A stretch of DNA of 60,019 nt, from NCBI GenBank assembly GCA_034658815.1, contig JAYEFY010000048.1, positions 1 through 60,019 on the forward strand, in the 5' to 3' direction. A model generated the notes under the pieces. That model was not told where the DNA came from and made no database searches. It saw only the letters and a program-made list of their open reading frames with translations. Below are positions 1-59,417 of this stretch, piece by piece; position 1 is the first letter of the stretch; each line of letters begins with the position of its first letter. Source of the DNA: Patescibacteria group bacterium (GTDB taxonomy: Bacteria; Patescibacteriota; Minisyncoccia; Moranbacterales; DUUL01). Position numbers and translations under genes: made by a program.

Positions 1-81
1 TTGCTGTAGATCATTAGTCTGACCAATATAAAATTTGTCGTATTTTTTATTGTACGCAATATAAACAAAAAGGTTTTGCAT
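1..81 (-). CDS. Minimal GIY-YIG nuclease, second tandem copy (only the 5' part is in the window)
   Basis: Bases 1-127 are identical to 333-459 (332-bp offset); ATG at 81 starts MQNLFVYIAYNKKYDKFYIGQTNDLQQ and the ORF runs off the window edge. Confidence 0.85.
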   Translation of the reverse strand, partial: MQNLFVYIAYNKKYDKFYIGQTNDLQQ

Positions 82-85
82 AATG

Positions 86-155
86 TGGGCGCTGAGAGAT
101 TCGAACTCCCGACCTACTGGGTGTAAATCCCGAGTACTCGGGACTCTAACCAACT
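86..155 (-). pseudogene. tRNA-Val-derived fragment lacking the first ~12 nt, with CGACTGG replaced by the perfect palindrome TCCCGAGTACTCGGGA (128-143)
   Basis: Direct comparison with the intact tRNA at 418-491. Confidence 0.85.
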
Positions 156-161
156 TGAACA

Positions 162-413
162 TTACATATTACAGAGTTTCCTATAAAACTGTTTCGATTT
201 TTGTTTTTTAAGAAACCTTTCTCTTCTTACAGTCTCTGAACGTGAGAAAAAACTTTCATAATACAAAATTTTCCATCCACCAGTATATTTTTTTGTGTAA
301 ACAGAAAAACCAGAACAATGTTCCAGTTCTCTTTGCTGTAGATCATTAGTCTGACCAATATAAAATTTGTCGTATTTTTTATTGTACGCAATATAAACAA
401 AAAGGTTTTGCAT
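162..413 (-). CDS. Minimal GIY-YIG nuclease (UPF0213/Slx1-like), 83 aa
   Basis: FVYIAY...FYIGQT motif pair, R (QQRE) and H (EH), conserved helix E (RRERFLK); true start is ATG at 413, directly after the tRNA 3' end. Confidence 0.88.
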   Translation of the reverse strand: MQNLFVYIAYNKKYDKFYIGQTNDLQQRELEHCSGFSVYTKKYTGGWKILYYESFFSRSETVRRERFLKKQKSKQFYRKLCNM

Positions 414-417
414 AATG

Positions 418-491
418 TGGGCGCTGAGAGATTCGAACTCCCGACCTACTGGGTGTAAACCAGTCGCTCTAACCAACTGAGCCAAGCGCCC
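418..491 (-). tRNA. tRNA-Val(TAC)
   Basis: GGGCGCT/AGCGCCC acceptor stem, ACTGG-TTTACAC-CCAGT anticodon arm, GTTCGAATC T loop; CCA not encoded. Confidence 0.96.
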
Positions 492-734
492 TTGTAACAA
501 GAAAAACATAAAATGACCTACTGGGTGTAAATCCCGAGTCCTTGGGACTCTAACCAACTGAGCCAAGCGCCCTTGTAACAAGAAAAACATAAAATGACCT
601 ACTGGGTGTAAATCCCGAGTCCTCGGGACTCTAACCAACTGAGCCAAGCGCCCTTGTAACAAGAAAAACATAAAATGACCTACTGGGTGTAAATCCCGAG
701 TCCTCGGGACTCTAACCAACTGAGCCAAGCGCCC
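492..734 (-). repeat. Three tandem 81-bp units: tRNA-Val 5' half with a palindrome replacing the 5' anticodon-stem strand, plus a 17-nt AT-rich spacer
   Basis: Units 492-572, 573-653 and 654-734 are identical except one base (543); palindromes at 532-547, 613-628 and 694-709. Confidence 0.95.
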
Positions 735-758
735 TTGTAATGGGGCTTTGACCATACG

Positions 759-842
759 TGCCCCGAGAGAGACTCGAACTCTCATGCGCATAAAGCGCCA
801 TGGCCCTCAACCATGTGTGTATACCGATTCCACCATCGGGGC
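759..842 (-). tRNA. tRNA-Leu(GAG)
   Basis: GCCCCGA acceptor, CATGG-TTGAGGG-CCATG anticodon arm, long variable arm, GTTCGAGTC T loop. Confidence 0.95.
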
Positions 843-994
843 GATGTTTTTAAATGCCAAATCTTTATCAATGTTACCGTGTTTTTATATTACGGTCAAG
901 ATTTGAATTTTCACACACAGTAGTTGGGCGCTGTTGCATTGTTTTTTCGTGAGCAATTCTATAGATGAAGAATAAAAAACGAAAATTCAAAATA

Positions 995-1022
995 ACAAAA
1001 AGCGCCGATAAGCGCCTTTTGT
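995..1022 (-). terminator. Probable intrinsic terminator after rplS
   Basis: On the minus strand AAAAGGCGC-TTATCG-GCGCTTTTT, about 30 nt after the stop. Confidence 0.5.
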
Positions 1023-1052
1023 GTGCATACTAAGCAAACAAACTGCTTCGTT

Positions 1053-1538
1053 TTAATTTTTCGCTTCAGTCTTTTCTCTCTTTCTTAGTGTCTTTTTCTT
1101 GGATTCCTTTTTTTCGTTTTTCTTTTCCTTCGGCTCTCGTTCTTTCTCTGCTTCTTGCAGTTCTTTGATAATTGTCTTTTCGCTTTCGGAAAGATCTCTC
1201 ACTTTCATCTTTGCGGCTTTACCGGTTCTGTCTCTCATATAATACAGTTTTGCTCTGCGTACTTTACTGCGTCGAAGAAGATCGATTTTTTCAATTGATG
1301 GAAGATAAATTGGAAAAGTTGCTTCTACTCCGATTCCTTGAGATTCACGCCGAACAGTGATAGTTGGTGAAGAACTTTGTTTTCCCTTGATTGCGATAAT
1401 TAGACCTTTAAAAACTTGAATACGCTCTCGGTTGCCTTCTTTAATATGTTTGTGGACGCGAACAATGTCACCGACTTTAAACGACGGAAATTTCTTTGTT
1501 TGCAGTGATTTATTAAATTGCACAACTTTTTCATTCAT
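1053..1538 (-). CDS. rplS: 50S ribosomal protein L19 with a charged C-terminal extension
   Basis: [39 protein letters not shown] motifs. Confidence 0.96.
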
Positions 1539-1562
1539 ATCGGAAAAGTTACTTCATTATAT

Positions 1563-1584
1563 AGATTGTTTCCAAACTAGCTTT
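1563..1584 (+). repeat. Solo terminus of the GGGACTGTTTCCAAACTA MITE-like family
   Basis: AGATTGTTTCCAAACTAGCTTT matches the terminus of the 28084-28171 element. Confidence 0.5.
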
Positions 1585-1854
1585 GTCAATAAAAATCAGG
1601 AAACTTCATTCATCATTACTGTTCGTGAACGGCATGATTCTGAGCATTCAGGATAAGATTTTTGATGGGAATTGACTCAAGAACAGTTTCTTACCAAGCT
1701 TTTCCAAGCATATCCCACTTTCTTAAATAGAGCAAGGTTATTATTGCCTAGATTTAACGGTTCGCTCAGATTGATTGCTATCTCACTATTTAATTTTTCT
1801 CGAAAATATGATATTATTCAGATAGCATCATCGTGAAAAACAAATCTTATAAAT

Positions 1855-2220
1855 ATGACATATTCCAATAACAAAGTATTTTTTGTTCTGTTCGTGTTAT
1901 TTTTTTTATGCGGAACCATTTGTTCAAGCGGACAAATAGCTGCGCAAGCCCAAGATCAAAGAAACGATCAGTCTTTAGAGATCTCAGACGAGAGAATTAC
2001 AAATGACAATGAAGCGAAAGCAATGGCCAGTGCGAATGACAATGTGAATTCGGGAGAAACAAAAGTTGCTGAGTTATCCAAAATACAACCACAAATATTT
2101 GCCGATGCTGAAGCGCCGCCCGCGGGACCTGCGGAATCGGTTGTTATTATTGCGGCAATTACATTCGGGTTTTTAGGCGCCGTGATCTTTCTGGCGCTTG
2201 TTGTTCATAATCGATATTGA
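1855..2220 (+). CDS. Hypothetical exported protein with an N-terminal signal and a C-terminal TM anchor
   Basis: Hydrophobic N-terminus, polar middle, PPAGP followed by a hydrophobic helix. Confidence 0.65.
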   Translation: MTYSNNKVFFVLFVLFFLCGTICSSGQIAAQAQDQRNDQSLEISDERITNDNEAKAMASANDNVNSGETKVAELSKIQPQIFADAEAPPAGPAESVVIIAAITFGFLGAVIFLALVVHNRY

Positions 2221-2229
2221 AACGAAGCT

Positions 2230-3189
2230 TTATTTTAGATGTTTAGAAAATTTTAGTGGAATAGGGCAGGAAAATTCATATTTTTTCATGTTGCTATATT
2301 TAAAGGAAAGATGTGAAGCATGTAAGAAAAGACGGCTAAACGGCGCGTTTTTTTGTTTAGTGTTCTTAGTAAAGTACAATTTGTCGCCGACAACAGGATG
2401 TCCAATTGATTGAAGATGAATGCGAATCTGATGTTTTCTTCCTGTTTTTAACTCAATTTCAACGAGACTGATCTTCCCGTTGTCTTTCAAAACTGAAAAT
2501 GAAGTAAGAGCGTTTTTTGGATTAATAAGTTTTTCAGCACGCGCACTAGTTGACTGGCAAGTAGGCCGTGCTTTTGATCTGCCAATAAACGTTGAGATAT
2601 CTCCCTTTTTTTGTTTAAATGTTCCCCAACAAAAAACATGATACTTTTTTCTAATGGTTCTTTCTTTAAACTGTTTTTTGAAAAATTCGAAACTTTTTTG
2701 CTTAAGAGCGATAATGAGCAAACCGGACGCATCTTTATCGAGTCGGTGGACAATTCCCGGGCGTAGCGGGTCTTCCCCGACTGACGTAATTTGCGGAAAA
2801 TGCGCGAGTGCCCAATTCACAACGGTGTTACGATGTTCATGGTCGCTCGGATGAACTGAAATTCCGGATGGTTTGTTAATAATGAGAAAATCATCATGCT
2901 TGGCAATAATAGAAATTGGCAAGTCAGCCTGTGGTTCGATGCAGAGAGGAGCTGTTTTTTGAAAAATTCGAATCTTTACTAGGTCTCCTTTTTTAATGAG
3001 ATAGCGAGGTTTTATCCTCTTTTTGTTAACTGTAATAAACCCGTTTTTAATATGCTTCTGGATCAAAGTTCTGGGAATATCGGGGAATTTGGAAGCAATA
3101 AAAACATCCAATCGCGTGTCGGTTGAATCTTGAACAATTAAAACTTCTTTAAAAATAGATTGATTCTTTTCGGAAGTTATTTTTGGCAT
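2230..3189 (-). CDS. RluA/RluD-family pseudouridine synthase
   Basis: S4-like N-terminus (RLDVFIA), NKPSGISVHP, catalytic HRLDKDASG, TGRKHQIRIH. Confidence 0.93.
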   Translation of the reverse strand: MPKITSEKNQSIFKEVLIVQDSTDTRLDVFIASKFPDIPRTLIQKHIKNGFITVNKKRIKPRYLIKKGDLVKIRIFQKTAPLCIEPQADLPISIIAKHDDFLIINKPSGISVHPSDHEHRNTVVNWALAHFPQITSVGEDPLRPGIVHRLDKDASGLLIIALKQKSFEFFKKQFKERTIRKKYHVFCWGTFKQKKGDISTFIGRSKARPTCQSTSARAEKLINPKNALTSFSVLKDNGKISLVEIELKTGRKHQIRIHLQSIGHPVVGDKLYFTKNTKQKNAPFSRLFLHASHLSFKYSNMKKYEFSCPIPLKFSKHLK

Positions 3190-3198
3190 AACGCAACA

Positions 3199-3876
3199 CT
3201 ATTTTGCGATCTTTAAAATATATTTGTTAAGGCTGTTTTCAAGACTGTCCTTATATCTGTGCATGAAAAAGAAAAACACAAGAGCCACAACAACGAAAAG
3301 AGCAACTGTCTGGGTTTTCGATATGGCCATGCCGTTGCCGATAACATTGGCAATAAAACAACCTGGAATTCTACCCAGCACGGCTGTAAGCATCAAAGTT
3401 CTGATCTTGATCTTTGTTAGTCCTGAAATGAAACATATTGCGTCATCAGGGAACATTGGAACTAAGAAAACAATGAAGATGATTGAGATTTTTCTGCTGT
3501 TTGAAATATGATGAAAGCGATCCAATGTTTTTTTTGGAACAATTTTCTCAACAAAAGGTTGCCCGAGTGTTCTTGAAAGATAGAAAGCAATAAACGAGCC
3601 AATCGACAGTCCGATTATTGAATAGACTGTTCCCATATAAGGGCCAAAAAAATACCCGCTGATAAAACCGGTTATTTGGCCGGGAATGGGGACAAATATG
3701 ACTTGAAGAGTTTGAAGAAGAATGATGAGAAATGGGCCAAGTGCTCCCGATTGCGTGATGAATAGTTTGATTTGCGAGAAATCATTAAGAGGGAAGTAGC
3801 GACTGAGAACGATTGCAAGAATAAGCAGGATGATGGTAAAGATGAGAACGCTGGCAAGAACTATTTTTTTAACCAT
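3199..3876 (-). CDS. TVP38/TMEM64 (VTT/DedA-like) membrane protein
   Basis: IPGQITGFISGYFFGP and VPMFPDDAICFISGL motifs, multiple TM helices. Confidence 0.85.
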   Translation of the reverse strand: MVKKIVLASVLIFTIILLILAIVLSRYFPLNDFSQIKLFITQSGALGPFLIILLQTLQVIFVPIPGQITGFISGYFFGPYMGTVYSIIGLSIGSFIAFYLSRTLGQPFVEKIVPKKTLDRFHHISNSRKISIIFIVFLVPMFPDDAICFISGLTKIKIRTLMLTAVLGRIPGCFIANVIGNGMAISKTQTVALFVVVALVFFFFMHRYKDSLENSLNKYILKIAK

Positions 3877-3978
3877 GAACGTTGTTTTGAATTACATAAT
3901 GACTGTTCCTAGGCACCGTTTCGCAACGAAGGTTCAGAACTTTCAACAGAAAGAGTGTTTGGGAACAATCTCTTATTG

Positions 3979-4063
3979 TGCCGGAGAGAGGACTCGAACC
4001 TCCAAGGGATAAAATCCCACTAGCTCCTAAGGCTAGCGTGTCTGCCAATTTCACCACTCCGGC
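3979..4063 (-). tRNA. tRNA-Leu(TAG)
   Basis: GCCGGAG acceptor, CTAGC-CTTAGGA-GCTAG anticodon arm, variable arm. Confidence 0.95.
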
Positions 4064-4156
4064 GGAAAGTTTTGTCCGCTGTTTCAGCGGGTACTCGCCG
4101 GTATGGCGAGCGAACTCCAATATTTACAACTCCGGTTTTTGTGACCCCGTAAGAAA

Positions 4157-4244
<88 letters not shown>

Positions 4245-13818: not shown

Positions 13819-16800
13819 ATGGATACGGTAATGCACTTAATTGTTATTTCAATCTTGATGCCTGAAGAGAAAAAGCAAAAACAAAAAAAGGACAAAATTA
13901 AGTTTGCTGATACGGGCGAGGTTCAGAAGGTGTTAAAAAAACTCAAAAGAGAATCGGAGGAAGAAGAAGCGTCACGTCATGCTAAGTCATTGGGAATGCC
14001 CTACCTTGACCTAAATATTTTTCCTATTGACCAGGAACATGCGACATTCATTTCTGAAAAAGACGCACGCAAATATCGTGTTGTTGTTATTCATAAAATA
14101 GAGAGAGATACGAAGATTGCGACAACACGCCCAAAAGACAAGGAAACAGAGCAGTATATAAGTCAGTTAAAGGAAAAAGAGGGGTTAAAAATAAAAATGT
14201 TTGTTGTTTCGAAAACATCTTTCGAACGAGTATTGGAAGAATATAAGAAAACTAAGCTTGTTGATGTTTTTGATTATCTTCGAATGGGATTAACTGGTGA
14301 AGATCTTGAAAATTTTGAAAAGGATCTGCAAGGAATTATTGATCTTGAGAAAAGAATTAATGAATTGCCTGTTACCCAAGTGCTTAACATGATTATTGCC
14401 GGAGCAGTCAAGCTTAACTCGTCTGATATCCATTTTGAACCGCAAAAAAACCAAAAAGTCCGATTACGCTATCGAATTGACGGTGTTTTGCAGACTGTTG
14501 CGGAATTGCCGATCAATATTTACCCAACGATAGTTTCTCGCATCAAAATGCTTGGAAAGATGATGATTAATGTTCGGGATATTGCTCAAGATGGGCGTTT
14601 TTCAATAAAAAAGGGTGATGGGAATGATACCGACGTACGTGTTTCAGTATTGCCGGGAAATTTTGGAGAGAACATTGTGATGCGGCTGCTCATGCATGAT
14701 ATTGGTGATCTGACAGTTGAAAAACTTGGACTTATCGGACTTAACCGTGAATGGTTAATGAATGAAGCGGATAAAAAGCAAGGAATTATTATTAATTCCG
14801 GTCCCACTGGAAGCGGTAAGACGACAACACTGTACGCGATCATTAATAGTATTAATTCATCAGACAAAAAAATTATCAGCATCGAAGATCCTATCGAATA
14901 TCAAGTTGCGGGAGTAGCTCAAACGCAGGTTGAAGAGGGAAAAGGCTACACGTTTTCTAAGGGGCTTCACGCAATTGTCCGACAGGATCCGGATGTCATT
15001 CTCGTTGGAGAAATTCGAGATGAAGATACTGCCGCAATTGCTGTTCAAGCCGCTTTGACCGGACACTTGGTCTTTACGACTGTTCATGCGAATAGCTCCG
15101 CCGGAGTTGTAGGGAGGCTTGTTGATCTTGGCGTAAAGCCAGTACTTATTTCACCGGCTGTGAACGCGTTTATCGCCCAACGGCTTTTAAGAAGACTATG
15201 TCCTCATTGCAAAGAGGAATATATCCCCGCACAAGAAACAATTGACATGATTAAGAAGATGCTTTCGCTTATATCGCCGAAAGCGAAGGTTCAAATTCCA
15301 AAAGAAATTAAAACTTTATGGAGATCAAAGGGATGTACAAAATGCCGAGGACTAGGTTATAAAGGGAGGGTTGGATTATTTGAAGTAATGATGATCAATA
15401 ATGAAATACAGCATTTAATTGAACATTTTGGTTCGGAAGATGAGCTTAGAAATGTCGCGTTGGAAAATGGAATGATTACGCTTGAACAAGATGGAATTCT
15501 CAAGTCGATAGACGGTACGACGTCTCTCAAGGAATTACAGCGTGTTGTCGGCAAAGGAGAATACTTGCTGGATCTATATGAAAAAATTGTTATTCAAACA
15601 TTAGCTCGCGGTTTGCTTATTAAAAATGATATTTTTGAACAGGTCAAAGAGGTGAAAAATGATTATGGCGCGATGAAAGAGAAATTGAAACAATTTTCTC
15701 CAAGTGAAATGGTCACTTATATTTTGGCAAGTGCGCTTTTAACCAGCGCGGGCGATGTGCATATTGAGCCGGGAGAAACGGAATTCAAAGTGAGATTTCG
15801 TATTGACGGAGTATTGCACGACATAGTTAGTTTTCCGATGACGGAATTTCTGAACACACTTAATGAAGTTAAGAATCTCACTGGAGCAAAAACTGAATCT
15901 CGAGAAGGAGTAATTGATGGAAGGTTTAGAATAATAATTCAGGAGGAAACCAAGGAAATTACCGATAAAAGTGTTGATATCCGAGTTTCTATAATTCTTG
16001 GCGGTTTTGGGGATATTATTGTGATGAGACTTTTAAACCAATCGGCAAGAGCGACGGTTCTTGAAGAGTTAGGTATTTGTTCGTATAATCTTCAAATAAT
16101 TAAACGAAACGCTTCAAAGCCGAATGGAATAATTCTTAACACCGGTCCTACCGGAAGCGGTAAAACAACAACATTGTATAGTATATTGGCATTTCTTAAT
16201 GATCCACAGCTTAAAATCATTACAGTTGAAGATCCAATCGAATATCAAATGAGCGGTATTTTACAAACGCAGGTAAAAGAGGAGGAGAATTATACTTTTG
16301 CGACGGCGATGAGAGTTCTTTTGCGGCAAAATCCTGATATTATGATGATTGGAGAGATTCGAGATGATGATACCGCAAATACAGCCTATCAAGCGGCACT
16401 TACAGGCCATTTGGTGCTTAGTACGTTACATACGAACAGCGCCGCAGGATCAGTTCAACGGCTTATCAATATGGGAATCACTTCTTCTGATTTGGCAGCA
16501 GGCACTAACTGTTTTATGGCTCAGCGTTTAATTCGTGTTTTATGTCCGTACTGTAAGAAAAAAGTCAAAGCAACGGCAAGGAAGAAGAAGATAATGGAAA
16601 CGGTTCTTGGTCGGATATCGCCGAAAACAGGATTAAAAATTCCGCGAGAGACTGAATATATTTATAAGCCTGTAGGATGTACAAAGTGTCACGGACTTGG
16701 ATATAGTGGAAGAGTTACAATATCAGAGGCATTGGAAATTGGTGAAGAAATGCAGAAGTTTTTAATTACGATGCCTACTACGATCGAACTTCGGAAAAAG

Positions 16801-16929
16801 GCAATTGAAGAAGGAATGCTTACAATGGCACAGGATGGAGTTCTAAAAATTATTGAAGGGGTAACCTCGTTTGAGGAAGTTGCTCGGCTTACTCGTGAAA
16901 TTGGAAAAGGCTCGGAAGAAAAAGTGTAG
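13819..16929 (+). CDS. GspE/PilB-family secretion ATPase with two complete tandem ATPase domains (start may be 13858)
   Basis: Two copies each of SDIH/DVHIEP, GPTGSGKTTT, EDPIEY, GEIRD, His box and CxxC...CxxC. Confidence 0.9.
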   Translation: MDTVMHLIVISILMPEEKKQKQKKDKIKFADTGEVQKVLKKLKRESEEEEASRHAKSLGMPYLDLNIFPIDQEHATFISEKDARKYRVVVIHKIERDTKIATTRPKDKETEQYISQLKEKEGLKIKMFVVSKTSFERVLEEYKKTKLVDVFDYLRMGLTGEDLENFEKDLQGIIDLEKRINELPVTQVLNMIIAGAVKLNSSDIHFEPQKNQKVRLRYRIDGVLQTVAELPINIYPTIVSRIKMLGKMMINVRDIAQDGRFSIKKGDGNDTDVRVSVLPGNFGENIVMRLLMHDIGDLTVEKLGLIGLNREWLMNEADKKQGIIINSGPTGSGKTTTLYAIINSINSSDKKIISIEDPIEYQVAGVAQTQVEEGKGYTFSKGLHAIVRQDPDVILVGEIRDEDTAAIAVQAALTGHLVFTTVHANSSAGVVGRLVDLGVKPVLISPAVNAFIAQRLLRRLCPHCKEEYIPAQETIDMIKKMLSLISPKAKVQIPKEIKTLWRSKGCTKCRGLGYKGRVGLFEVMMINNEIQHLIEHFGSEDELRNVALENGMITLEQDGILKSIDGTTSLKELQRVVGKGEYLLDLYEKIVIQTLARGLLIKNDIFEQVKEVKNDYGAMKEKLKQFSPSEMVTYILASALLTSAGDVHIEPGETEFKVRFRIDGVLHDIVSFPMTEFLNTLNEVKNLTGAKTESREGVIDGRFRIIIQEETKEITDKSVDIRVSIILGGFGDIIVMRLLNQSARATVLEELGICSYNLQIIKRNASKPNGIILNTGPTGSGKTTTLYSILAFLNDPQLKIITVEDPIEYQMSGILQTQVKEEENYTFATAMRVLLRQNPDIMMIGEIRDDDTANTAYQAALTGHLVLSTLHTNSAAGSVQRLINMGITSSDLAAGTNCFMAQRLIRVLCPYCKKKVKATARKKKIMETVLGRISPKTGLKIPRETEYIYKPVGCTKCHGLGYSGRVTISEALEIGEEMQKFLITMPTTIELRKKAIEEGMLTMAQDGVLKIIEGVTSFEEVARLTREIGKGSEEKV

Positions 16930-18670: not shown

Positions 18671-18784
18671 GGGATTATTTCCAAACTAGTTTTCTGCCTC
18701 GCCGAACTTACCCGTACCGAACGGTACGTTCGGACGAGCAGGCAGGCGTTGGCAAAAACTTGGAGTTAGTTTGGCGACAGTCCC
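18671..18784 (+). mobile_element. MITE-like element with an internal REP-like palindrome
   Basis: Termini GGGATTATTTCCAAACTAG / GTTAGTTTGGCGACAGTCCC; internal CCCGTACCGAACGGTACGTTCGGACG (18711-18736). Confidence 0.7.
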
Positions 18785-19389: not shown

Positions 19390-19489
19390 GAGCCTGTCTA
19401 AAAAGTCCACATTCTGCTGCAAATTTCGGATTCCGGCTGTCCCGAGCCACTCGGAAATCGCAACACAAGAGACTTTTTAAACAGGCTCT
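19389..19489. mobile_element. Second MITE-like element (~100 bp) with 19-bp terminal inverted repeats
   Basis: AGAGCCTGTCTAAAAAGTC ... GACTTTTTAAACAGGCTCT (one mismatch); internal TCCCGAG...CTCGG hairpin. Confidence 0.65.
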
Positions 19490-21200: not shown

Positions 21201-21415
21201 GAGAACTGTTTCTAAACCAGCTTCTTACCTTGCCCTGCCTGCCCTGCCTGTCTGCTAGCAGGCAGGTGGCAGGCGTTAGTCCCGAGTACTCGGAACTAAA
21301 TTTTTGGTTATGTTTCAGCATAAATAATATTTTCAAAGCTGTTGATCGCGCTGTTTGCAAACAGTAATAATAAATAGGCAACAATTTTTAGCAGGAGTTA
21401 GTTTGGAATAGTCCT
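21201..21415. mobile_element. Expanded MITE-like element carrying CCTGCC-type and TCCCGAGTACTCGG-type palindromes
   Basis: Left GAGAACTGTTTCTAAACCAGCTTC, right GCAGGAGTTAGTTTGGAATAGTCC; internal palindromes at 21229-21276 and 21280-21295. Confidence 0.65.
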
Positions 21416-25694: not shown

Positions 25695-25791
25695 TAAGCA
25701 AAAACGCGGTGAAGAACCTTTTGGTTTAATTGAAGTTTATATCGTTTTATGTGTAAGAAATTAGAGCGTTATTTACAATATTGCCGCTTTT

Positions 25792-25947
25792 TTGTCATCC
25801 CGAGTCCCGAGTGCTCGGGATTGAGGGATCACTTCGCGTAAATAAGTTCACAGTCAAGGGATTCCTGCCTACCCTGCCTACCCTGCCTGCCGGCAGGCAG
25901 GGTAGGCAGGGTAGGCTTCTCCCGCTAAAGCGGGATCAGAATGACAA
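25792..25947. repeat. Composite nested REP-like element
   Basis: Outer TTGTCAT...ATGACAA; inner TCCCGAGTGCTCGGGA (25805-25820), perfect 25-bp-arm palindrome (25867-25916) and TCCCGCTAAAGCGGGA (25920-25935). Confidence 0.8.
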
Positions 25948-32259: not shown

Positions 32260-33984
32260 ATGAAACTTGAACAACTGACAATAAAGAACATCAAAAGTTT
32301 TAGGGACGAACAAACAGTTTCATTCAAAAGTGATCTCAATATATTTATTGGCTCAAACGCGAGCGGAAAGAATAATTTGCTGGATATTATCCATATTGTT
32401 ACGAGTTACTATTTTGTGTACCCATGGAAGCTTAAAGCAGTTGCAAAGCAGGGTTTAGCATTCTCATATGCTGTTATTGATAGTATTTATGATGGCAGAA
32501 AACATTTTGAGCCAATAGAGCAGTTTCTTGACAGAAACATTTTCGCTCAACAGGAAGAACAGCTTATTAAAATATCATTTCGGGTAACAAGCTCTGACGT
32601 CGAGAGCTTAAAAACGATCAAAAAATACGAGGAAGCGCTGAAAAAGATAGAGCGCCGGAAGTTTCACAAATTATATTTGGGTGATTTTAGCCTTAAGGGA
32701 GTAAATATTGATAAATTTACCGATAAAATATTTGAATATCAGATCATAGGCAATGAACCGATAGCCAGCGAGGATCAGCATAGAGCGGACATTTTTTTAA
32801 ATTATTTGCACTATCATGAACTCATAAGATTTTATATCAATAAGTACAATGAAGATGTAACGGAAACATATCGCATTAGAAACTTATTGCCAATTTCTCA
32901 ATATCTCTCCTCATTAAGAACCTCGGCGGCTCAAGCAGCCGAAAGACTCTTAGAGCTTGACAAAAAAATAGATCCGCTCAAAGGATTCGAAGAAGATTTT
33001 GTAATTTTTACGCTTGGAAAGCAAAATGAACAGGCAGTTTCAAAAGGAAAAAAACAGATCATTAAGGGAAAAAAAAATGAAGAACTGTTAAAGAGCATTA
33101 TTAAAAAATTAGGATATGAAAGTATCATGCTTTGTAAAAGTGAAAAACATGAAGGATACGAATTATCATTAAAAAAAGATCGCAATCAAAAATATTTTTC
33201 GAAAGCCAGTACCGGAGAATTACAAATACTCAATTTTTTGCTTTCAGTAATTACCAGTTGCATTTATGGCGGCACGGTGATAATTGGCGAGCCAGAAATT
33301 CATTTATATCCGCAGCGACAGCGTATCATGCTTGATCTGTTCCGTAAACTTTCTAAATTATTTGATCTGCAGTTTATTATCATTACTCACTCTCCTTATA
33401 TGATCGATGCCAAGTCGATTACCAGCACATTCAGGGTATATAAAGAAAACGAGAGTAGTAGAGTTTATTCACCGAACCAAACAATTTTTGAAGAAACGGA
33501 TTCTTGCGATCTTGTGCTGATAATCAACGTGCTTAACAATGAAAAAATATTTTTTTCAGAGAAAGTGGTATTGGTGGAAGGAATCGCGGATCGTATTATA
33601 TTTGAAATAATATTACGCATATTGCAAGAAAAGAAGAATAATTTTGAAACAATAGAGATCATTGATGTTTTTGGAAAAGGAAATCTTAAACGTTTCAAAA
33701 ATTTTCTCGCGGAATGGAACATAAAAAGTTATATTATTGCTGATGATGATTATGCAGACGATCTTTTACGGGAGCACAAGCGAAAAATTGAAAAAAAGGA
33801 ATTTATTGCGAGTCTTTGGAAAGAAAGCGTTTATATTCTACCCAAAGGCGATTTAGAGGATTATTTTCATGAAGGTCATTTTGATATTGATGAAGCGATA
33901 GAAATTGCTCAGCAAATTCAGAATAAAGATAGAATAATACCGGATGAACTCAGGACAATACTTGAAGAAATTATTCGCGGTTAA
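32260..33984 (+). CDS. OLD-family ATP-dependent nuclease (ABC-ATPase + TOPRIM)
   Basis: IKNIKSF, GSNASGKN, ASTGE signature, EPEIHLYP, IITHSP, LVEGIAD, IADDD. Confidence 0.85.
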   Translation: MKLEQLTIKNIKSFRDEQTVSFKSDLNIFIGSNASGKNNLLDIIHIVTSYYFVYPWKLKAVAKQGLAFSYAVIDSIYDGRKHFEPIEQFLDRNIFAQQEEQLIKISFRVTSSDVESLKTIKKYEEALKKIERRKFHKLYLGDFSLKGVNIDKFTDKIFEYQIIGNEPIASEDQHRADIFLNYLHYHELIRFYINKYNEDVTETYRIRNLLPISQYLSSLRTSAAQAAERLLELDKKIDPLKGFEEDFVIFTLGKQNEQAVSKGKKQIIKGKKNEELLKSIIKKLGYESIMLCKSEKHEGYELSLKKDRNQKYFSKASTGELQILNFLLSVITSCIYGGTVIIGEPEIHLYPQRQRIMLDLFRKLSKLFDLQFIIITHSPYMIDAKSITSTFRVYKENESSRVYSPNQTIFEETDSCDLVLIINVLNNEKIFFSEKVVLVEGIADRIIFEIILRILQEKKNNFETIEIIDVFGKGNLKRFKNFLAEWNIKSYIIADDDYADDLLREHKRKIEKKEFIASLWKESVYILPKGDLEDYFHEGHFDIDEAIEIAQQIQNKDRIIPDELRTILEEIIRG

Positions 33985-54205: not shown

Positions 54206-55240
54206 ATGAATGAGATAAAAACAAGAAAACCGGATAATTGGCATGCCCATCCTCGGCAGGATGATTTGCTGGCAAGAGTATTCCATCATTTTAACATATA
54301 CGGCCGGGTGCTGTGCATGGGAAATACTTCGCCATTGATTGAGACTGCGAACGACGCGCTTCGCCATAAAAATGATATTTTGGCGCAAGGTGCGCTGTTT
54401 GAGCCGGTAATGTGAATTATGCTAACGCAAGACACAACGCCGGAAATAATTTTCAAAGCCGCAAAAAAGGGAATTAAGTTTGTAAAATTTATCCCTGTCG
54501 GCACATCAACTGGAGCCGTCAAAGGACTTCGGCTTGATGATTCTGATAAGCTGTATAAAATTTTTCCGGCGATTGAAGAAACAGGTATGTATTTGCCTTT
54601 GCATGCAGAATTAATGTCGTTTATAAATGGCAAAGCAATTCATTTACAGGATCGTGAGGAAGCGGCAATTAGTATAGTTTTCGCGTTTCATAAACATTTC
54701 CCTAAAATGAAAATTACCATTGAGCATGTTTCGACTGCTAAAATGATTAACTTTGTTCAATCGCAGGATAGCGCTAATGTGCGAGCCACCTTAACCCCAC
54801 AGCACGCGTTATTGACTTATTCAGATGTATTCGACCACAATGACCATTTGATTAACCCATATAACTATTGCTTGCCGGTCGCAAAAAAAGAAATTGACAG
54901 GCAAGCGGTTATTGCGGCCATGGTCAGTGGCGATGAGCGTTTTTTCGCCGGAGCGGACTCCGCTCCTCATTGGGCAAAACTCAAAGCCGGCGATAATCCG
55001 CCAGCAGGCATTTTTTTCGAACCAGCCGAGTTTCCGCTGTGGGTAAAAATTTTTGAGAGCAAGAGCGCTTTACATAGGCTTGAGAATTTCACTTCCCGCT
55101 TCGGAGCGGAATATTACGGCTATCCGTTAAATTCCGGTACGATTACTCTTGTGCAAGAAGAATGGGAACTGCCGATTATTGAAAATGGAATTCGTTACTG
55201 TAAAGGTGGAGAAATTATCAGATGGAAAGTGGTTGAATAA
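54206..55240 (+). pseudogene. pyrC: Dihydroorotase (E. coli-type) interrupted by one in-frame TGA at 54413-54415
   Basis: DNWHAHPR, MGNT, VKFIP, LHAE, IEHVST, GADSAPH all present; ORFs 54176-54415 and 54419-55240 are in the same frame (ATG TGA ATT ATG). Confidence 0.85.
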
Positions 55241-55261
55241 ACCTAGCCAAAAGGAGGGTGT

Positions 55262-55459
55262 ATGAAATTAAAAAAGTGGCGACTAAAAAAAGAAAGGCTG
55301 ACGAAAAAGAAGAAGAAAACAAAGAAGAAGCAAGAGAACAGAGAAAATCTTAGGAAGAAGAAAAAGTGAAATGTAATTCCCAAAAGCCCAGCCTGCGACA
55401 AGCAGGCGAAGAATAAAGGGATGTATTGTCAAGGATGTAAAGACAATAAATATAGGTAA
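55262..55459 (+). pseudogene. Small charged, Cys-containing ORF, broken or recoded
   Basis: Strong SD (AAGGAGG) then ATG; frame reads 35 Lys-rich codons, TGA (55367), then NVIPKSPACDKQAKNKGMYCQGCKDNKYR*. Confidence 0.4.
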
Positions 55460-55477
55460 AAACAGAAAAGGAGACAG

Positions 55478-56047
55478 ATGATGGAATTTTGGAAGAGATA
55501 CAAGATTGGAGTTTTTGGTTCGGCAGGCGGGAGTGAAATGGATGCGTGTAAGCAAGTTGCCCGAGTTATTGGTCAGCAGATTGCCAGATTTAAAGGTATT
55601 ATTTGCACTGGCGCTTGCCCTAGGCTTCCTCATGAAGCCGCTTTGGGAGCTGATGAAAAAGGTGGTGTGGTGTTCGGTTTTTCACCGGGAATGAATTTAA
55701 GTGACCATATTCAAAATTACCATGAGTTTCCTACTTTTCCGTATACTCTCATCTTTACTGGTATGGAAAAGAAAGGGCGGAACCTGATTAATACTCGTAC
55801 TTGCGATGCCGGTATTTTCATTTCTGGAAGATGGGGAACTATGAATGAATTTACCCTTATGTATGATGAAGGTGCGAACAAAGTAATTGGTCTCTTGGCA
55901 GGTTCAGGCGGTTTTGTTGACGGAAAGATTATTCCGGTTTTAAACGAAACCGAAAAACCAAGTAAGGCAAGAATTGTGATCGAAAACAACCCTGCATTTC
56001 TGGTAGAAGAAATTTTTCAACACTTGGCAGAAATCAAACAACTGTAA
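55478..56047 (+). CDS. LOG/SLOG-family protein
   Basis: IGVFGSA, TGACP, GFSPG, GRNLIN, GRWGTMNE, GSGG. Confidence 0.82.
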   Translation: MMEFWKRYKIGVFGSAGGSEMDACKQVARVIGQQIARFKGIICTGACPRLPHEAALGADEKGGVVFGFSPGMNLSDHIQNYHEFPTFPYTLIFTGMEKKGRNLINTRTCDAGIFISGRWGTMNEFTLMYDEGANKVIGLLAGSGGFVDGKIIPVLNETEKPSKARIVIENNPAFLVEEIFQHLAEIKQL

Positions 56048-56059
56048 GGAGGAATTAAC

Positions 56060-56875
56060 ATGAAAAGCCAGATACAGAAATCAACTTTGTTTTTACCGCT
56101 TGATGTGCCGACTCTTATTGAAGCTGGAAAGCACCTGGTTAAATTGGCGCCGCTCTACGATGTGGTTAAGGTTGGACTGGAGCTAATGAGTAATGTCGGC
56201 CAAGCTACTGCTATCAACCTGCCGAAAGTATTCGGCCGTGAAGTATTTGCGGATACTAAGTATTATGATATTCCGAATACTATTAAAGGCGCGGCTAAGG
56301 CTACAACTTCGCATGGTGTCGCGTATTTTAATGTCATAGCTGAAGGCACAAGACCTATGATGGAAGCAGCTATGGAAGGCGCGCATGAACGGGCGCAGGA
56401 ATGGGGTATTCCCAGACCAAAGATTATCGCCGTGACCATTCCAACGAGCCAGAAATACGAAGACTTATTAAGGAAGGGCATGGTTCCTAAGGACATGGAT
56501 GAGCCCAAGACACCGGAAGAACAGCAAGCATTTATCACTTACATTGTGATGAAGCTGGCTAAAGAAGCAGTTTCGGCCGGAGTAGATTGTCTTTTATCTT
56601 CACCTTTGGAAGCACCGGAAATGATAAAGCAGTGGTCTGATAAAGAAGTATTGACTCCGGGTATTCGCAATCCCGACTCGCCGCCGGACGATCAAAGCCG
56701 TAAAATGTCTCCCTATGAAGCCAGAAAAAAAGGTATTACTGGATTCGTAATTGGAAGACTGGTTTCACAACCGCCTGAAGGAAAAACCATGGAAGATATG
56801 GCCAGACTGGTTCGCCAGAATATTAAACGAGCCGAAGTAGAGCTGAACTACTATAACACAGCAGGAGGTGATTAA
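56060..56875 (+). CDS. pyrF: Orotidine-5'-phosphate decarboxylase
   Basis: LPLDV, VKVGLEL, DTKYYDIPNT (DxKxxD), TPGIR, DDQSR, VIGR. Confidence 0.9.
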   Translation: MKSQIQKSTLFLPLDVPTLIEAGKHLVKLAPLYDVVKVGLELMSNVGQATAINLPKVFGREVFADTKYYDIPNTIKGAAKATTSHGVAYFNVIAEGTRPMMEAAMEGAHERAQEWGIPRPKIIAVTIPTSQKYEDLLRKGMVPKDMDEPKTPEEQQAFITYIVMKLAKEAVSAGVDCLLSSPLEAPEMIKQWSDKEVLTPGIRNPDSPPDDQSRKMSPYEARKKGITGFVIGRLVSQPPEGKTMEDMARLVRQNIKRAEVELNYYNTAGGD

Positions 56876-57580
56876 ATGACACGCGATGAGCTACTATCAT
56901 TAGACCCAAAAGTTTTTGATAATTTCGTATTATCTCAGGACGAAATACTATCCTGGTTTTCAACACTCAATGCTTTTTGGGAGTATAGCGGTAACCCAAA
57001 GGATCCGCACGCGAAATTAACAACAGGAAAGTGCAGCAATGGTTTTTTCGACTGCCTACGGGTGATCCAATATCTTAATCTTTCAAGAATTTTAGCTAAT
57101 CAGTTGGCTAAAAAGATCCGAAAGGTTATTGGAAATACAAAGGTAGATCGAACTATCGGGTCGCCGATGGCAGATATTGAATTTGCCCGTGAGGTCGGTT
57201 GGGCTATCGGCGCCAAGGCCAGTAATTTCGTTGAGAAAGATCCGAAAATCAAAGGCAAGATGGTCTGGGAACGGATGACAATCCCAGAGAATGAAACAGT
57301 ACTTCAAATTGAGGAGCTGACTACAACTGCCGGAACGCTTTTGTCTGTGCGGGCGGCAATTGACGAAAGCAATCCCACTCCGATAAATTGGTTGCCGGTA
57401 GTCGGCATTCTCGTGCATCGGCCGCCAAAACTTCCCGCCGGTCCTTATGATAACCGGCAAATTATATCTTTAATTGAAAAGGAAATTTGGGCTGTTGATC
57501 CGCCGTGTGAGCTTTGCAAGAAAGGATCGCCGCGATGGCGTCCAAAAACCCATTGGAAAGAATTGACAGGAAAAGAATAA
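56876..57580 (+). CDS. pyrE: Orotate phosphoribosyltransferase-like protein
   Basis: AKLTTGKCSNGFFDC, LQIEELTTTAGT (variant PRPP-binding loop), operon position after pyrF. Confidence 0.75.
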   Translation: MTRDELLSLDPKVFDNFVLSQDEILSWFSTLNAFWEYSGNPKDPHAKLTTGKCSNGFFDCLRVIQYLNLSRILANQLAKKIRKVIGNTKVDRTIGSPMADIEFAREVGWAIGAKASNFVEKDPKIKGKMVWERMTIPENETVLQIEELTTTAGTLLSVRAAIDESNPTPINWLPVVGILVHRPPKLPAGPYDNRQIISLIEKEIWAVDPPCELCKKGSPRWRPKTHWKELTGKE

Positions 57581-57599
57581 GTCACCTTGTCTGTCAATA

Positions 57600-57704
57600 A
57601 CAAAAAGGGAAGTAGCACAAACAAGCTATTTCCCTTTTTTCTTTTTTACCCTATTACTATTAAGCAAAAAGCCGAAAGTCCAAACGGACAACTAGGCTTT
57701 TATT
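57600..57704. repeat. Direct repeat copy A (terminator-like hairpin plus a GTCCAAACGGAC hairpin)
   Basis: Aligns with 58223-58320. Confidence 0.8.
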
Positions 57705-57762
57705 TCTTGGCAATGAAAAAGCGGCGCCGCAATGGGAACCGCTCGGTTTGCTAGAATGGTAA

Positions 57763-58152
57763 TTATAAATTCACGCTTAAGGCCTTCAACCTGCATATCA
57801 GATGAACTGCTTCCTTTTTCCAATAGTCTGCCCCTCCATATTCATCAGGAAAACCACCAATGTATAATGTAAGGACATCTATCAAGAAAGGTTTAAGCTC
57901 CCTGATAAATGTTAGTTTTCCTGCGTATATACCGCTCATTTGCTCTGGAAAGTAAGGACATCCAAACCGCAATTGAACACTCTCTACGCCTTCCAAAAGT
58001 CTATCTGTCCACGCGCGCTTACCTTCATCCTTCCACCCTTTAAACGCCTCGGACCAATCCCCTCGGCACATTTTTAATGCAGTTAGTAGAGCATCCTTCT
58101 CCTCTTCCACAATGACCAACTCCATTAACTCTGACTTTTGTTCTTCTGCCAT
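57763..58152 (-). CDS. Hypothetical protein (129 aa) with a possible internal duplication
   Basis: SD AAGGAGG, upstream TTGACA; halves LVIVEEEKDALLTAL...WKDE and LTFIRELKPFLIDVL...WKKE resemble each other. Confidence 0.7.
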   Translation of the reverse strand: MAEEQKSELMELVIVEEEKDALLTALKMCRGDWSEAFKGWKDEGKRAWTDRLLEGVESVQLRFGCPYFPEQMSGIYAGKLTFIRELKPFLIDVLTLYIGGFPDEYGGADYWKKEAVHLICRLKALSVNL

Positions 58153-58222
58153 AACTTTTCCCTCCTTTGTGTATTTTAACTAAATTATTGAATATACTTT
58201 ATAAAATGTCAAGCGTTTAAAT

Positions 58223-58320
58223 ACAAAAAGGGAAATAGCGCAAACAAGCTATGGCCCCTTTTTTCTTTTGTTATAAGCAAAAAGCTGAAAGTCCAAACGG
58301 ACGAGTAGGCTTTTATCTTT
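58223..58320. repeat. Direct repeat copy B
   Basis: ACAAAAAGGGAAATAGCGCAAACAAGCTAT...TAAGCAAAAAGCTGAAAGTCCAAACGGAC...TAGGCTTTTAT. Confidence 0.8.
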
Positions 58321-58328
58321 TATTTATG

Positions 58329-58474
58329 TATGCTGGGGAGGAGGGATTTTCGCCTCGTCTTCACTAAAGTTCAGACTTCGTTGTCCAGGGCAGCGCTGAA
58401 AGCTGTTCGCTTCCAGCGACACTCGCTTATCTCACTTTGTTCGATGCTCGCTTCTGCCCGTTCGAATCCCTCTC
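58329..58474 (-). repeat. Duplicated tRNA-Gln 3' end plus an inverted T-arm copy
   Basis: 58329-58348 equals 58521-58540; GTTCGAATCCCTC at 58460-58472 is inverted relative to the tRNA T arm. Confidence 0.75.
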
Positions 58475-58524
58475 TCAAAACACACAAACAAAAAACGGAA
58501 CAAGCCTTTTTTCATTTGTGTATG

Positions 58525-58596
58525 CTGGGGAGGAGGGATTCGAACCCCCGAATCACGGGACCAGAACCCGTTGCCTTACCGCTTGGCTACTCCCCA
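58525..58596 (-). tRNA. tRNA-Gln(CTG)
   Basis: TGGGGAG/CTCCCCA acceptor, ACGGG-TTCTGGT-CCCGT anticodon arm, GTTCGAATC T loop. Confidence 0.96.
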
Positions 58597-58745
58597 AGAA
58601 ATATTTTGTAAAAAACTTTGTCCCGTTTCAATCTTGACCACTCTTTTTATCCCATCCAAGCGGTCAGCTTGCCCGCCCGAACGTACCATTCGGTACGGGC
58701 GAGCCCGCCCGTCCGAAGCTTTAACGCAGGCGGGGCTACTCCCCA
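58562..58745 (-). repeat. 184-bp direct repeat, copy 1 (tRNA-Gln 5' half, upstream DNA, and a REP-interrupted tRNA 5' tip)
   Basis: Near-identical to 59097-59280 (535-bp offset). Confidence 0.9.
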
Positions 58746-59002
58746 ATGTTATTTTGTGTAAATAACTCCTTTAGTTGTTGGCGTAAAAATCTTTTTCCTT
58801 CAGTAGTTTTCAGATATCGTTCTCTTCGTTCAGCATCTTGCGATAATAAATATGCTTCGTAATGAATAAGCTTAACAGGTAAACGCTTACTTGTGAACTT
58901 TGATTTTCCAAGTTTATGTTCCTCAACTCTTCTTTTTAAGTTGCTCGTGCACCCAGTATAAATCTGCAAATTATTTAAAAGTAAAATATAAACGTAATGC
59001 AT
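58736..59002 (-). CDS. Minimal GIY-YIG nuclease, 88 aa
   Basis: YVYILL...IYTGCT, RRVEEH, RLPVKLIHYEAY, AERRERYLKT; stop codon supplied by the tRNA-derived TGGGGAGTAG. Confidence 0.9.
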   Translation of the reverse strand: MHYVYILLLNNLQIYTGCTSNLKRRVEEHKLGKSKFTSKRLPVKLIHYEAYLLSQDAERRERYLKTTEGKRFLRQQLKELFTQNNIGE

Positions 59003-59059
59003 TTTGGAATATTTGTATTTAATACCTACAGAAATTTATTGCACTACCGTAGGAACCAT

Positions 59060-59095
59060 CATGTCATTCGACATGATGCCATGTCGAATGACATG
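59060..59095. repeat. Perfect 16-bp-arm inverted repeat whose arms are themselves hairpins
   Basis: CATGTCATTCGACATG-ATGC-CATGTCGAATGACATG. Confidence 0.9.
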
Positions 59096-59096
59096 G

Positions 59097-59280
59097 CAGA
59101 ACCCGTTGCCTTACCGCTTGGCTACTCCCCAAGAAATATTTTGTAAAAAATCTTATCTCGTTTCAATCTTGACCACTCTTTTTATCCCATCCAAGCGGTC
59201 AGCTTGCCCGCCCGAACGTACTATTCGGTACGGGCGGGTCTGCCCGTCCGAAGCTTTAGCGCAGGCGGGGCTACTCCCCA
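59097..59280 (-). repeat. 184-bp direct repeat, copy 2; its tRNA half ends exactly after the anticodon
   Basis: TGGGGAGTAGCCAAGCGGTAAGGCAACGGGTTCTG, then the 59060-59095 palindrome. Confidence 0.9.
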
Positions 59281-59368
59281 AGATTATATCATTCCAAGTT
59301 TGTCGAGGTTCAATCATTTGACGGGGTAAAAATTGCTTCGTGTAGATATAGAAAGTATTTCAGTGCCA

Positions 59369-59417
59369 AGGGATCCTTCGACTTCTCCCGCTAAGCGGGA
59401 TTCACTCAGGATGACAA
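59369..59417. repeat. REP-like element related to the right part of 25792-25947
   Basis: AGGGATCCTTCGACTTCTCCCGCTAAGCGGGATTCACTCAGGATGACAA. Confidence 0.65.

Follow-up and report, generated by a model that had tools for sequence, protein, structure and literature searches.

Why does the gene for a very small nuclease lie between broken copies of a tRNA gene? This question is raised by a 60,019-nucleotide (nt) stretch of contig JAYEFY010000048.1 (GCA_034658815.1) from a Patescibacteria group bacterium, which is referred to here in its whole length as the window. At two loci, one at a tRNA-Val gene and one at a tRNA-Gln gene, a stand-alone GIY-YIG nuclease gene encoding 83 or 88 amino acids (aa) lies amid fragments of the adjacent tRNA. 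The genes around both loci are the ordinary housekeeping set of a Moranbacteria-like Patescibacteria genome. An earlier reading of the sequence (here, the original prediction) had proposed that such nucleases are coupled to palindromes and use tRNA genes as a safe harbor. On the evidence presented below, we lean toward the view that each locus is a selfish homing cassette that has its own rescue tRNA and sits within a tRNA transcription unit, much like the mobile open reading frames (ORFs) of fungal mitochondria.

Small nuclease genes lie between intact and broken tRNA copies

Both window loci have the arrangement given in the original prediction: the nuclease gene is placed between broken copies of the adjacent tRNA, and a palindrome is found at each break (coordinates are listed in Table 1). 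At the Val locus, the start codon of the nuclease gene lies 4 nt beyond the end of the intact tRNA-Val(tac). The tandem unit of this locus is 332 nt long, and positions 1-127 are 100% identical to positions 333-459; therefore, a second copy of the ORF starts at position 81 and leaves the window. The three ORF-less 81-nt units on the other side of the intact gene are displaced or dead 5' copies of tRNA-Val. At the Gln locus, the upstream tRNA-Gln copy (positions 1-35 at 59097-59131) breaks off directly past the anticodon, at position 35/36, and a perfect 16+16 inverted repeat at 59060-59095 adjoins this truncated copy. The double hairpin found here is an anticodon-loop insertion with TG on either side. 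The stop codon of the 88-aa ORF falls within a tRNA-Gln 5' stub.

Further loci were collected in three sets. A profile of both nuclease subfamilies (Gln-type and Val-type), run against one genome per species, yielded 80 loci, a metagenome scan with the Val-type profile yielded 80 more, and look-ups of close homologues added 4. The hosts in the first set were Patescibacteria together with Victivallales, Kiritimatiellae, Verrucomicrobiota, Planctomycetota, and Cloacimonadota. We found that 126 of 177 related ORFs lay within 60 nt of a tRNA (70/86 Gln-type and 56/91 Val-type), whereas just 1.2% of background bases, taken more than 600 nt from the ORFs, did so. Most ORFs that were not near a tRNA were contig-end cases, and many contigs break right there. 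In all 126 tRNA-proximal cases, the ORF and the tRNA were co-oriented; the tRNA was 3' of the ORF in 53 + 26 cases and 5' in 17 + 30 (subfamilies in the same order), with median distances of 9 to 24 nt. The hosting tRNA species numbered 20 for the Gln-type and 12 for the Val-type, about 30 overall. There are about 160 independent loci at some 30 tRNA species, and the two window nucleases are 36% identical to each other over 64 aa. The original prediction was right that the architecture is recurrent and does not stem from one duplication.

On the opposite side of the ORF from the intact tRNA, part of that tRNA is present again, in most cases with 100% identity. When the intact tRNA is 3' of the ORF, the upstream partial copy comprises positions 1 to ~55, ~36, or ~22; when it is 5', the downstream partial copy runs from ~55 or from ~33-36 to the end. 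These break points fall in the T loop (~55), the anticodon loop (~36), and the D loop (~22), and this mapping of flanks across loci agrees with the proposal that the breaks lie in the loops of tRNA hairpin arms. The ORF is invariably located between the working tRNA and the palindrome, and the palindrome abuts the dead fragment. The whole cassette measures ~350-450 bp and contains one ORF of 83-88 aa and no tyrosine or serine recombinase. The possibility that the breaks hold a group I intron or another known RNA was considered and rejected: Rfam at permissive thresholds returned tRNAs only, and an uninterrupted tRNA is present. Promoter and terminator scans gave nothing above chance.

The original prediction had raised the possibility of assembly artefacts, in which reads from tRNA genes would be misjoined into repeats. 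Many contigs end at cassette loci, so the repeats do trouble assemblers; however, ~160 independent assemblies, made in many projects and with many assemblers, have the same ordered architecture, in which the sequence is specific to each locus and the reading frames are intact. We regard an artefact as a negligible prospect.

In genomes of uncultured bacteria, the cassettes account for dead tRNA pieces, for erroneous tRNA calls, and for broken contigs. At L085:429-511 (the sampled loci carry L numbers), a full-length, palindrome-bearing tRNA-Val copy was called "tRNA-Pro(cgg)" by ARAGORN, and dead copies of this kind can inflate or distort the tRNA inventories of uncultured genomes. Contigs very often stop within 100 nt of a cassette (L005, L020, L026, L033, L047, L074, L084, and many short contigs), and the L19-bearing contigs beside the Val locus are mostly 1-3 kb long. 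In Patescibacteria bins, cassette repeats seem to be a frequent reason for broken assemblies.

Palindrome types are specific to nuclease subfamilies

The palindromes partition by nuclease subfamily without exception. A double hairpin was found near the ORF at 52/80 Gln-type loci and at 0/84 Val-type loci, whereas the palindrome TCCCGAGnnCTCGGGA was found near the ORF at 51/84 Val-type loci (48/80 + 3/4) and at 0/80 Gln-type loci. These counts uphold the coupling of nuclease and palindrome that the original prediction had put forward. For the CCCGTACCGAA palindrome, which had been proposed as a nuclease partner as well, such a link found no support, as this palindrome is present in no other locus. 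No Rfam family matches the double hairpin or TCCCGAGnnCTCGGGA.

The consensus of the Gln-type double hairpin is CCnnGTCATYCGACnnGG + CG + CCnnGTCGRATGACnnGG; the loop cores are fixed and mutually reverse complementary, and the stems vary. In an alignment of 49 distinct copies, 98.1% of cells were paired and compensatory changes were seen in 10/14 pairs (112 cells). This level of pairing was matched by 0/500 shuffles, and partner-shifted structures came nowhere near it. At 17 loci, both flanks of the double hairpin lie in the T loop, where the last base of the left flank is the G of TTCG and the first base of the right flank is the C, which is a 2-bp CG duplication at the site TTCG^AA. Anticodon-loop insertions, made after TCG, GCG, or CTG, overlap likewise, and D-arm insertions have no flank overlap. 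The 2-bp junction duplication, present in at least 20 loci, would fit a 2-nt staggered cut. Hairpin 2 contains TCGAAT, which is T-loop sequence. At Val-type loci, TCCCGAGnnCTCGGGA takes the place of 5-13 nt in one strand of a stem, between two loops; it does so at a few recurrent positions in tRNA-Val, -Asp, -Ala, and -Pro. That the palindromes are scars of hairpin opening (P nucleotides) was rejected, since the same sequence occurs at different tRNAs and in different phyla.

Some palindromes stand apart from nuclease genes. In the window, TCCCGAGnnCTCGGGA has 6 matches with up to 2 mismatches against 0.04 expected, and CCCGTACCGAAnGGTACGTTCGG has 3 matches (18711, 58677, and 59212) against 0.01 expected. 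Two Val-type palindromes and no double hairpin are solo copies here. The palindromes reported away from tRNAs at 21280, 25805, and 18711 were all recovered; the one reported at 19440 is only a loose relative (3-nt center, one arm mismatch), which our search missed. Among the sets of loci, 7/64 double hairpins and 1/68 Val-type palindromes were distant from ORFs. Both solo palindromes at non-tRNA sites and ORF-less units consisting of a palindrome and a tRNA 3' end occur (L044:736, L059:4980, L071:5396, and a tandem of three in L065). Because the palindromes covary with the subfamily and occur solo, they are probably a DNA site that the nuclease binds or acts on.

These data bring to mind a system like REPIN/RAYT with another enzyme. 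There, the cognate hairpin would be the nuclease's substrate, spread or maintained genome-wide, and tRNA loops would be favored for their resemblance to that hairpin; the tRNA duplications would be repair by-products that survive if a working tRNA is restored, and tRNA adjacency would serve expression. The exceptionless partition of palindromes, their covarying stems with fixed loop cores, the solo and ORF-less copies (21280, 25805, L044, L059, L071, and L065), and the T-loop sequence TCGAAT in hairpin 2 are all consistent with this explanation, as is the build of the double hairpin, in which two inverted units resemble a REP doublet. Also consistent with it, Pfam scans of the 50 largest ORFs, for which the window was the part of the genome covered, detected no transposase, integrase, or RAYT (Y1 HUH, PF01797), in keeping with the original prediction, nor a RAYT gene flanked by palindromes. 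A hairpin-acting, palindrome-moving enzyme, as envisaged in the original prediction, also fits the Slx1-like fold described below and is a live alternative or complement to homing. However, ORF-distant palindromes are rare (the 7/64 and 1/68 given above), and the ORF is multicopy, switches host tRNA, and is lost and gained, which is unusual for a domesticated RAYT-like gene. GIY-YIG enzymes hydrolyze DNA, and rejoining by them is not known. We consider this explanation unlikely, though well above the others that compete with homing.

A passive association, in which palindromes cause replication slippage or duplication at tRNA genes and the small ORF is a mere passenger, would account for the existence of ORF-less units with duplicated tRNA ends and for the several unrelated palindrome families, including CCTGCC...GGCAGG, that also occur in tRNA loops near the loci. 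It leaves unexplained the one-to-one pairing of palindrome and subfamily, the constant strand and spacing, the catalytic residues, and the dN/dS of 0.1, and it seems to us highly improbable.

Several further repeats accompany the cassettes. A third palindrome family, CCTGCCTGCC..GGCAGGCAGG, adjoins the solo Val-type palindromes at window positions 21240-21275 and 25870-25915 and is found elsewhere inserted in the D loops of tRNA copies, e.g., at TTA^GAGC (L085:71, L092:488, and L099:93). Elements of the form GTCATCC(T/C)GAG... lie near cassettes (window 59385-59417 and 25786-25800; L003:3528; L101:284) and yield spurious small ORFs such as "..VILSESRLAGEVE..". The CG that flanks or separates the hairpins reads TG or CA in some copies (window 59059-59096, L006, L021, L044, and L075), as deamination of methylated CpG would be expected to produce.

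The nuclease is a minimal, conserved Slx1/UPF0213-type domain

By every sequence and fold test, the nucleases belong to the GIY-YIG superfamily and to its Slx1/UPF0213 branch, the type of enzyme named in the original prediction. This branch is structure-specific and acts on branched or hairpin DNA; the location of the break points in the loops of tRNA hairpin arms would be in line with such an activity, if only indirectly. Pfam GIY-YIG (PF01541) matched the 83-aa ORF with an E value of 2e-12 and the 88-aa ORF with 6e-13, and both pass the curated cutoff. In profile comparisons with the PDB, the leading matches were 1ywl (E 6e-15) and 1zg2 (E 1e-14), with SLX1 next. An AlphaFold model (pLDDT 91.9) gave Foldseek top ranks to 1zg2, 1ywl (UPF0213), and Slx1 chains, with I-TevI and UvrC only at E > 1. 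The score against the NCBIfam group I intron endonuclease model was under its cutoff. Y5, Y15, H29, and E61 do not vary across 32 sequences from both subfamilies, R25 hardly varies, and no invariant Asn follows E61. Members of the Slx1/UPF0213 branch are stand-alone minimal domains without the conserved C-terminal Asn of the UvrC/I-TevI branch (PMC1564403).

The Pfam match spans residues 1-70 of 88 and 5-74 of 83: the entire protein is catalytic domain. No separate DNA-binding module of the kind that marks I-TevI and Seg enzymes (NUMOD, zinc finger, or helix-turn-helix) is present in the window proteins. The median dN/dS was 0.10 over 52 pairs, indicating that the nuclease genes are under purifying selection. 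A profile search at E <= 1e-10 found 7,020 clusters (50% identity) in this family, which is essentially absent from viral contigs (one weak match in IMG/VR). The only annotation that its members bear is "GIY-YIG nuclease" or the incorrect "excinuclease ABC subunit C".

Cassettes change host tRNA, come and go, and probably carry their own tRNA

In 41 of 88 informative cases, the nearest-neighbor proteins sit at different tRNA species. Similarly, four near-identical double hairpins occupy the identical D-loop position in tRNA-Arg, tRNA-Gly, and tRNA-Lys. The L19/tRNA-Leu/tRNA-Val locus is occupied in the window, L001-L004, and L086, and L167 has a clean tRNA-Val there. In L166, the closest relative (L19 90% identical), the ORF is gone save 11 nt of its start ("CATTATGCAAA"), and the tRNA and one palindrome-bearing fragment are retained. 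Related genomes are therefore polymorphic for presence and absence at one site, as is expected of a homing gene.

A homing gene is also expected to carry a copy, possibly foreign, of the target part that it displaces, and partial duplicates are present in most loci here, although only three loci are informative for foreignness. In L023, L080, and L091, the acceptor-stem half of the outer 5' fragment is complementary at 7/7 positions to that of the outer 3' fragment, and these outer halves differ from the enclosed intact tRNA of the same isoacceptor at 2-4 positions per side. The outer pieces therefore derive from a single tRNA gene, which was divided by a cassette arriving with a tRNA of its own. 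The broken copies had been interpreted as tRNA-half amplification; the acceptor halves at these three loci make them better understood as native fragments displaced by the cassette. Target-site duplication from widely staggered nicks at tRNA ends became an unnecessary explanation once the foreign alleles had been seen. One-sided decay of tRNA copies was found in a few loci.

Tandem ORF copies are present in 16 loci, including the window. Nested insertion was rejected as the origin for L013, which has three 5' fragments and no matching 3' fragments; unequal repair fits better.

These data bear on whether the nuclease serves its host by guarding or maintaining tRNA loci, with the broken tRNA copies as side effects or decoys. 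It might, for example, cut invading DNA with attachment sites that resemble tRNAs, or it might resolve the structures that arise where tRNA genes are transcribed at a high rate. The strong purifying selection, the retention of the gene at the L19/tRNA-Leu/tRNA-Val locus in several genera, and the placement in the Slx1/UPF0213 branch, in which the members known so far have roles in genome maintenance (PMC1564403), are compatible with such a role. Close relatives, however, lack the gene with no trace of a replacement, close homologues sit at different host tRNAs, and no partner gene is conserved. The tandem arrays and the dead pieces of tRNA resemble costs rather than benefits. A host-serving function is improbable in our judgment, if marginally less so than passive association.

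A possible homing mechanism with a rescue tRNA

The cassette that we propose would have three parts: a minimal Slx1/UPF0213-type GIY-YIG gene, a substitute for the interrupted part of the tRNA gene (or else an entire spare tRNA), and a subfamily-specific palindrome placed at the junction with the displaced native tRNA fragment. The nuclease would cut an unoccupied tRNA gene in the loop of a hairpin arm (the T loop at TTCG^AA, the anticodon loop, or the D loop), probably with a 2-nt stagger and possibly on extruded or single-stranded DNA. Repair would then copy the occupied allele, with the tRNA sequence itself serving as homology. The missing tRNA part would be supplied by the cassette, so that the host's tRNA still works, and the old fragment would be left behind dead, its target site having been destroyed by the palindrome. 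Recutting of the rescue copy followed by unequal repair could produce the tandem arrays. The gene would be read off the tRNA promoter and released by tRNA processing. In this proposal, the tRNA gene is the target of the element, not the passive safe harbor of the original prediction.

The adjacency to tRNAs, partial copies, insertion points, hairpin conservation, partition of palindromes by nuclease subfamily, conserved catalytic residues, purifying selection, mobility, foreign tRNA, and the mitochondrial and phage precedents together tip our judgment toward homing. The anatomy, the subfamily specificity, the insertion points, the presence and absence among relatives, the switching between host tRNAs, and the selection on the gene are observed, whereas cleavage, homing, and the roles of the hairpins are inferred. 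Several points weigh against homing. The nuclease is a bare catalytic domain with no DNA-binding module, which leaves site recognition unexplained. The rescue tRNA has an intact T loop and should itself be cut, and the arrays suggest that it sometimes is. A palindrome is superfluous for simple homing, which explains neither the covarying stems and fixed loops nor the solo copies; the 5-13-nt replacements made by the Val-type palindrome fall at several positions, not at one site. A foreign allele was found at 3 loci only. Elsewhere, including in the window, most loci have copies that are all identical; these are uninformative, since plain duplication explains them too. Long retention at one syntenic locus under strong purifying selection could reflect domestication. 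The family's near absence from viral contigs leaves it with no known vector between cells.

A bolder reading, which we hold only tentatively and think doubtful, is that of a natural cleave-and-rescue drive on essential tRNA genes, and thus a new class of bacterial mobile element. In this case, a bare 85-aa structure-specific nuclease, with co-evolving hairpins as its cis sites, would cut cloverleaf arms as extruded DNA, travel with a spare tRNA, and spread hairpins alone. It would be the first non-HUH mobilizing enzyme of the REP type. Homing as such, if true, would give a function to a very large orphan nuclease family and would mean that the mitochondrial strategy of an endonuclease plus a replacement gene end works in bacteria too, on tRNA genes. 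If the catalytic domain alone is targeted through DNA structure and a cognate hairpin, this would be a new principle of nuclease specificity and a candidate for a compact tool. The cassettes also bear on the origin of split tRNA genes and on the old question of what makes tRNA genes attractive to mobile DNA.

Comparison with known systems

From its sequence features, the element appears to behave like a free-standing homing endonuclease gene of the mitochondrial mobile ORF (mORF) type, and it does not have the combined traits of RAYT/REP systems, integrase islands, I-TevI-type genes, or tRNA introns. In fungal mitochondria (Allomyces atp6; Glomus atp6, atp9, cox2, and nad3), a free-standing endonuclease gene inserts into an essential gene and brings a foreign copy of the displaced 3' end, while the native end persists downstream as a dead duplicate; in the atp9 case the enzyme is GIY-YIG (PMC3630166). 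Common to mORFs and the cassette are an endonuclease gene with a replacement part, a displaced native end, and an inserted piece that can differ in sequence. The mORFs target mitochondrial protein genes, whereas the cassette is found at bacterial tRNA genes. Unlike mORFs, the cassette replaces a 5' part, a 3' part, or the whole tRNA, encodes an 83-88-aa Slx1/UPF0213-type domain without a DNA-binding module, and has a subfamily-specific junction palindrome.

The gene for the GIY-YIG homing enzyme SegB of phages T4/T6 lies among tRNA genes; the enzyme cuts the tRNA region, leaving 2-nt 3' overhangs, and promotes both its own inheritance and tandem amplification of the tRNA-plus-nuclease segment (PMC2330249, PMC13096335). 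The tRNA context of a GIY-YIG gene and the amplification of a tRNA segment are shared with the cassette. SegB, however, is a larger protein of the I-TevI/UvrC branch and is equipped with DNA-binding modules; it is phage-borne, leaves tRNA genes unsplit, and has no cognate hairpin, whereas the cassette family is nearly absent from viral contigs.

REP/REPIN sequences and their RAYT enzymes are reportedly the subject of work by Nunvar (2010) and by Bertels and Rainey (2011). Like the cassette, they combine short palindromes and inverted doublets with a covarying small nuclease-type gene family; REP palindromes are scattered between genes, and some intergenic copies are seen for the cassette as well. 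The cassette differs in that its enzyme is GIY-YIG and not HUH Y1, its gene is multicopy and mobile, its insertions are concentrated in tRNA loops, and its solo copies are few.

Islands and prophages driven by integrases are said to insert into tRNA genes, reportedly reviewed by Williams (2002). One example is given in PMC1762012. Such islands resemble the cassette in their use of the anticodon loop, T loop, or 3' end, in carrying the displaced part, and in being flanked by a partial duplicate. In contrast, the cassette has no recombinase, is ~350-450 bp long, replaces 5' as well as 3' parts, and has junction palindromes.

Synthetic cleave-and-rescue gene drives, reportedly introduced by Oberhofer, Ivy, and Hay (2019), share the logic of a nuclease that breaks an essential gene and is linked to a working copy of it. 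These drives are engineered and use Cas9 with a recoded, uncuttable rescue, whereas the rescue tRNA of the cassette appears to retain the target sequence.

The Allomyces mitochondrial double-hairpin elements are short mobile two-hairpin units in a genome that also has mobile endonuclease ORFs (Paquin 2000, cited in PMC3787672). No enzyme is known to be tied to these elements, and their likeness to the cassette hairpins is one of overall form. In the rRNA genes of the candidate phyla radiation (CPR), GIY-YIG ORFs occur in nonintron insertions at the tops or bases of stem-loops, and the gene is interrupted without a rescue copy, whereas the cassette has a rescue tRNA (PMC11270868). This is the nearest published remark. 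A literature search of incomplete coverage turned up no account of bacterial GIY-YIG genes that are accompanied by split tRNA copies and palindromes.

Features of the window and further observations

TABLE 1 Coordinates of cassette parts and solo palindromes in the window
Feature	Position	Strand	Remarks
Start of second identical Val-type nuclease gene copy	1..81	-	Runs past window edge
Displaced tRNA-Val fragment	85..155	-	D-loop piece 144-155; TCCCGAGTACTCGGGA at 128-143, substituting 7 nt of the anticodon-stem 5' strand; tRNA positions 33-75 at 85-127
Val-type minimal GIY-YIG nuclease gene, 83 aa	162..413	-	Pfam GIY-YIG
Intact tRNA-Val(tac)	417..491	-	ARAGORN, Rfam; working (rescue) copy
Three 81-nt tandem units, ORF-less	492..734	-	tRNA-Val positions 1-25, TCCCGAGGACTCGGGA (at 694-709, 613-628, and 532-547, each in place of 7 nt of anticodon stem), positions 33-49, 23-nt spacer
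tRNA-Leu(gag)	842-758	-	5' neighbor of Val-locus tandem units
Solo CCCGTACCGAAnGGTACGTTCGG palindrome	18711..18733	.	Also present in both 191-nt Gln-locus units
Solo Val-type palindrome, 1 mismatch	21280..21295	.	Intergenic; beside CCTGCC...GGCAGG palindromes
Solo Val-type palindrome, exact	25805..25820	.	Intergenic; within 138-nt GC-rich palindrome cluster
tRNA-Gln T-arm and 3'-end fragment	58330..58472	-	T loop holds ~110-nt insert; 3' of intact gene; final 17 nt identical to tRNA-Gln 3' end
Intact tRNA-Gln(ctg)	58524..58596	-	ARAGORN, Rfam; working copy
Second copy of 191-nt unit	58562..58752	-	94% identical to first; continues into intact tRNA-Gln
Gln-type minimal GIY-YIG nuclease gene, 88 aa	58736..59002	-	Pfam GIY-YIG
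Gln-type double hairpin, 38 nt	59059..59096	.	CCATGTCATTCGACATGG CA TCATGTCGAATGACATGA on - strand
Upstream copy of 191-nt unit	59097..59287	-	tRNA-Gln 5' stub (positions 1-12), GC-rich palindromes, AT-rich stretch with promoter-like site, tRNA-Gln positions 1-35

The tRNA-Gln fragment at 58330-58472 had been overlooked in the original prediction. ORF-less T-loop inserts of ~100-110 nt in duplicated tRNA 3' ends were seen there and in L001:3500-3640 (Phe) and L168:4290-4440 (Val); those of L001 and L168 have the common motif GGGGTCG..AAACG...GGTTTCAAAG. The inserts have no Rfam match and may be a structured element in their own right.

Two genes of the window that lie away from the cassettes were also recorded. 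An OLD-family nuclease gene (AAA_15/AAA_21 ATPase and OLD-like TOPRIM) at 32260-33984 (+), flanked by two glycosyltransferase genes, is likely an anti-phage defense gene. At 13819-16929 (+), a 1,036-aa protein combines an MshEN domain with two stretches of T2SSE (type II/IV secretion ATPase) and resembles pilus-assembly ATPases fused in tandem.

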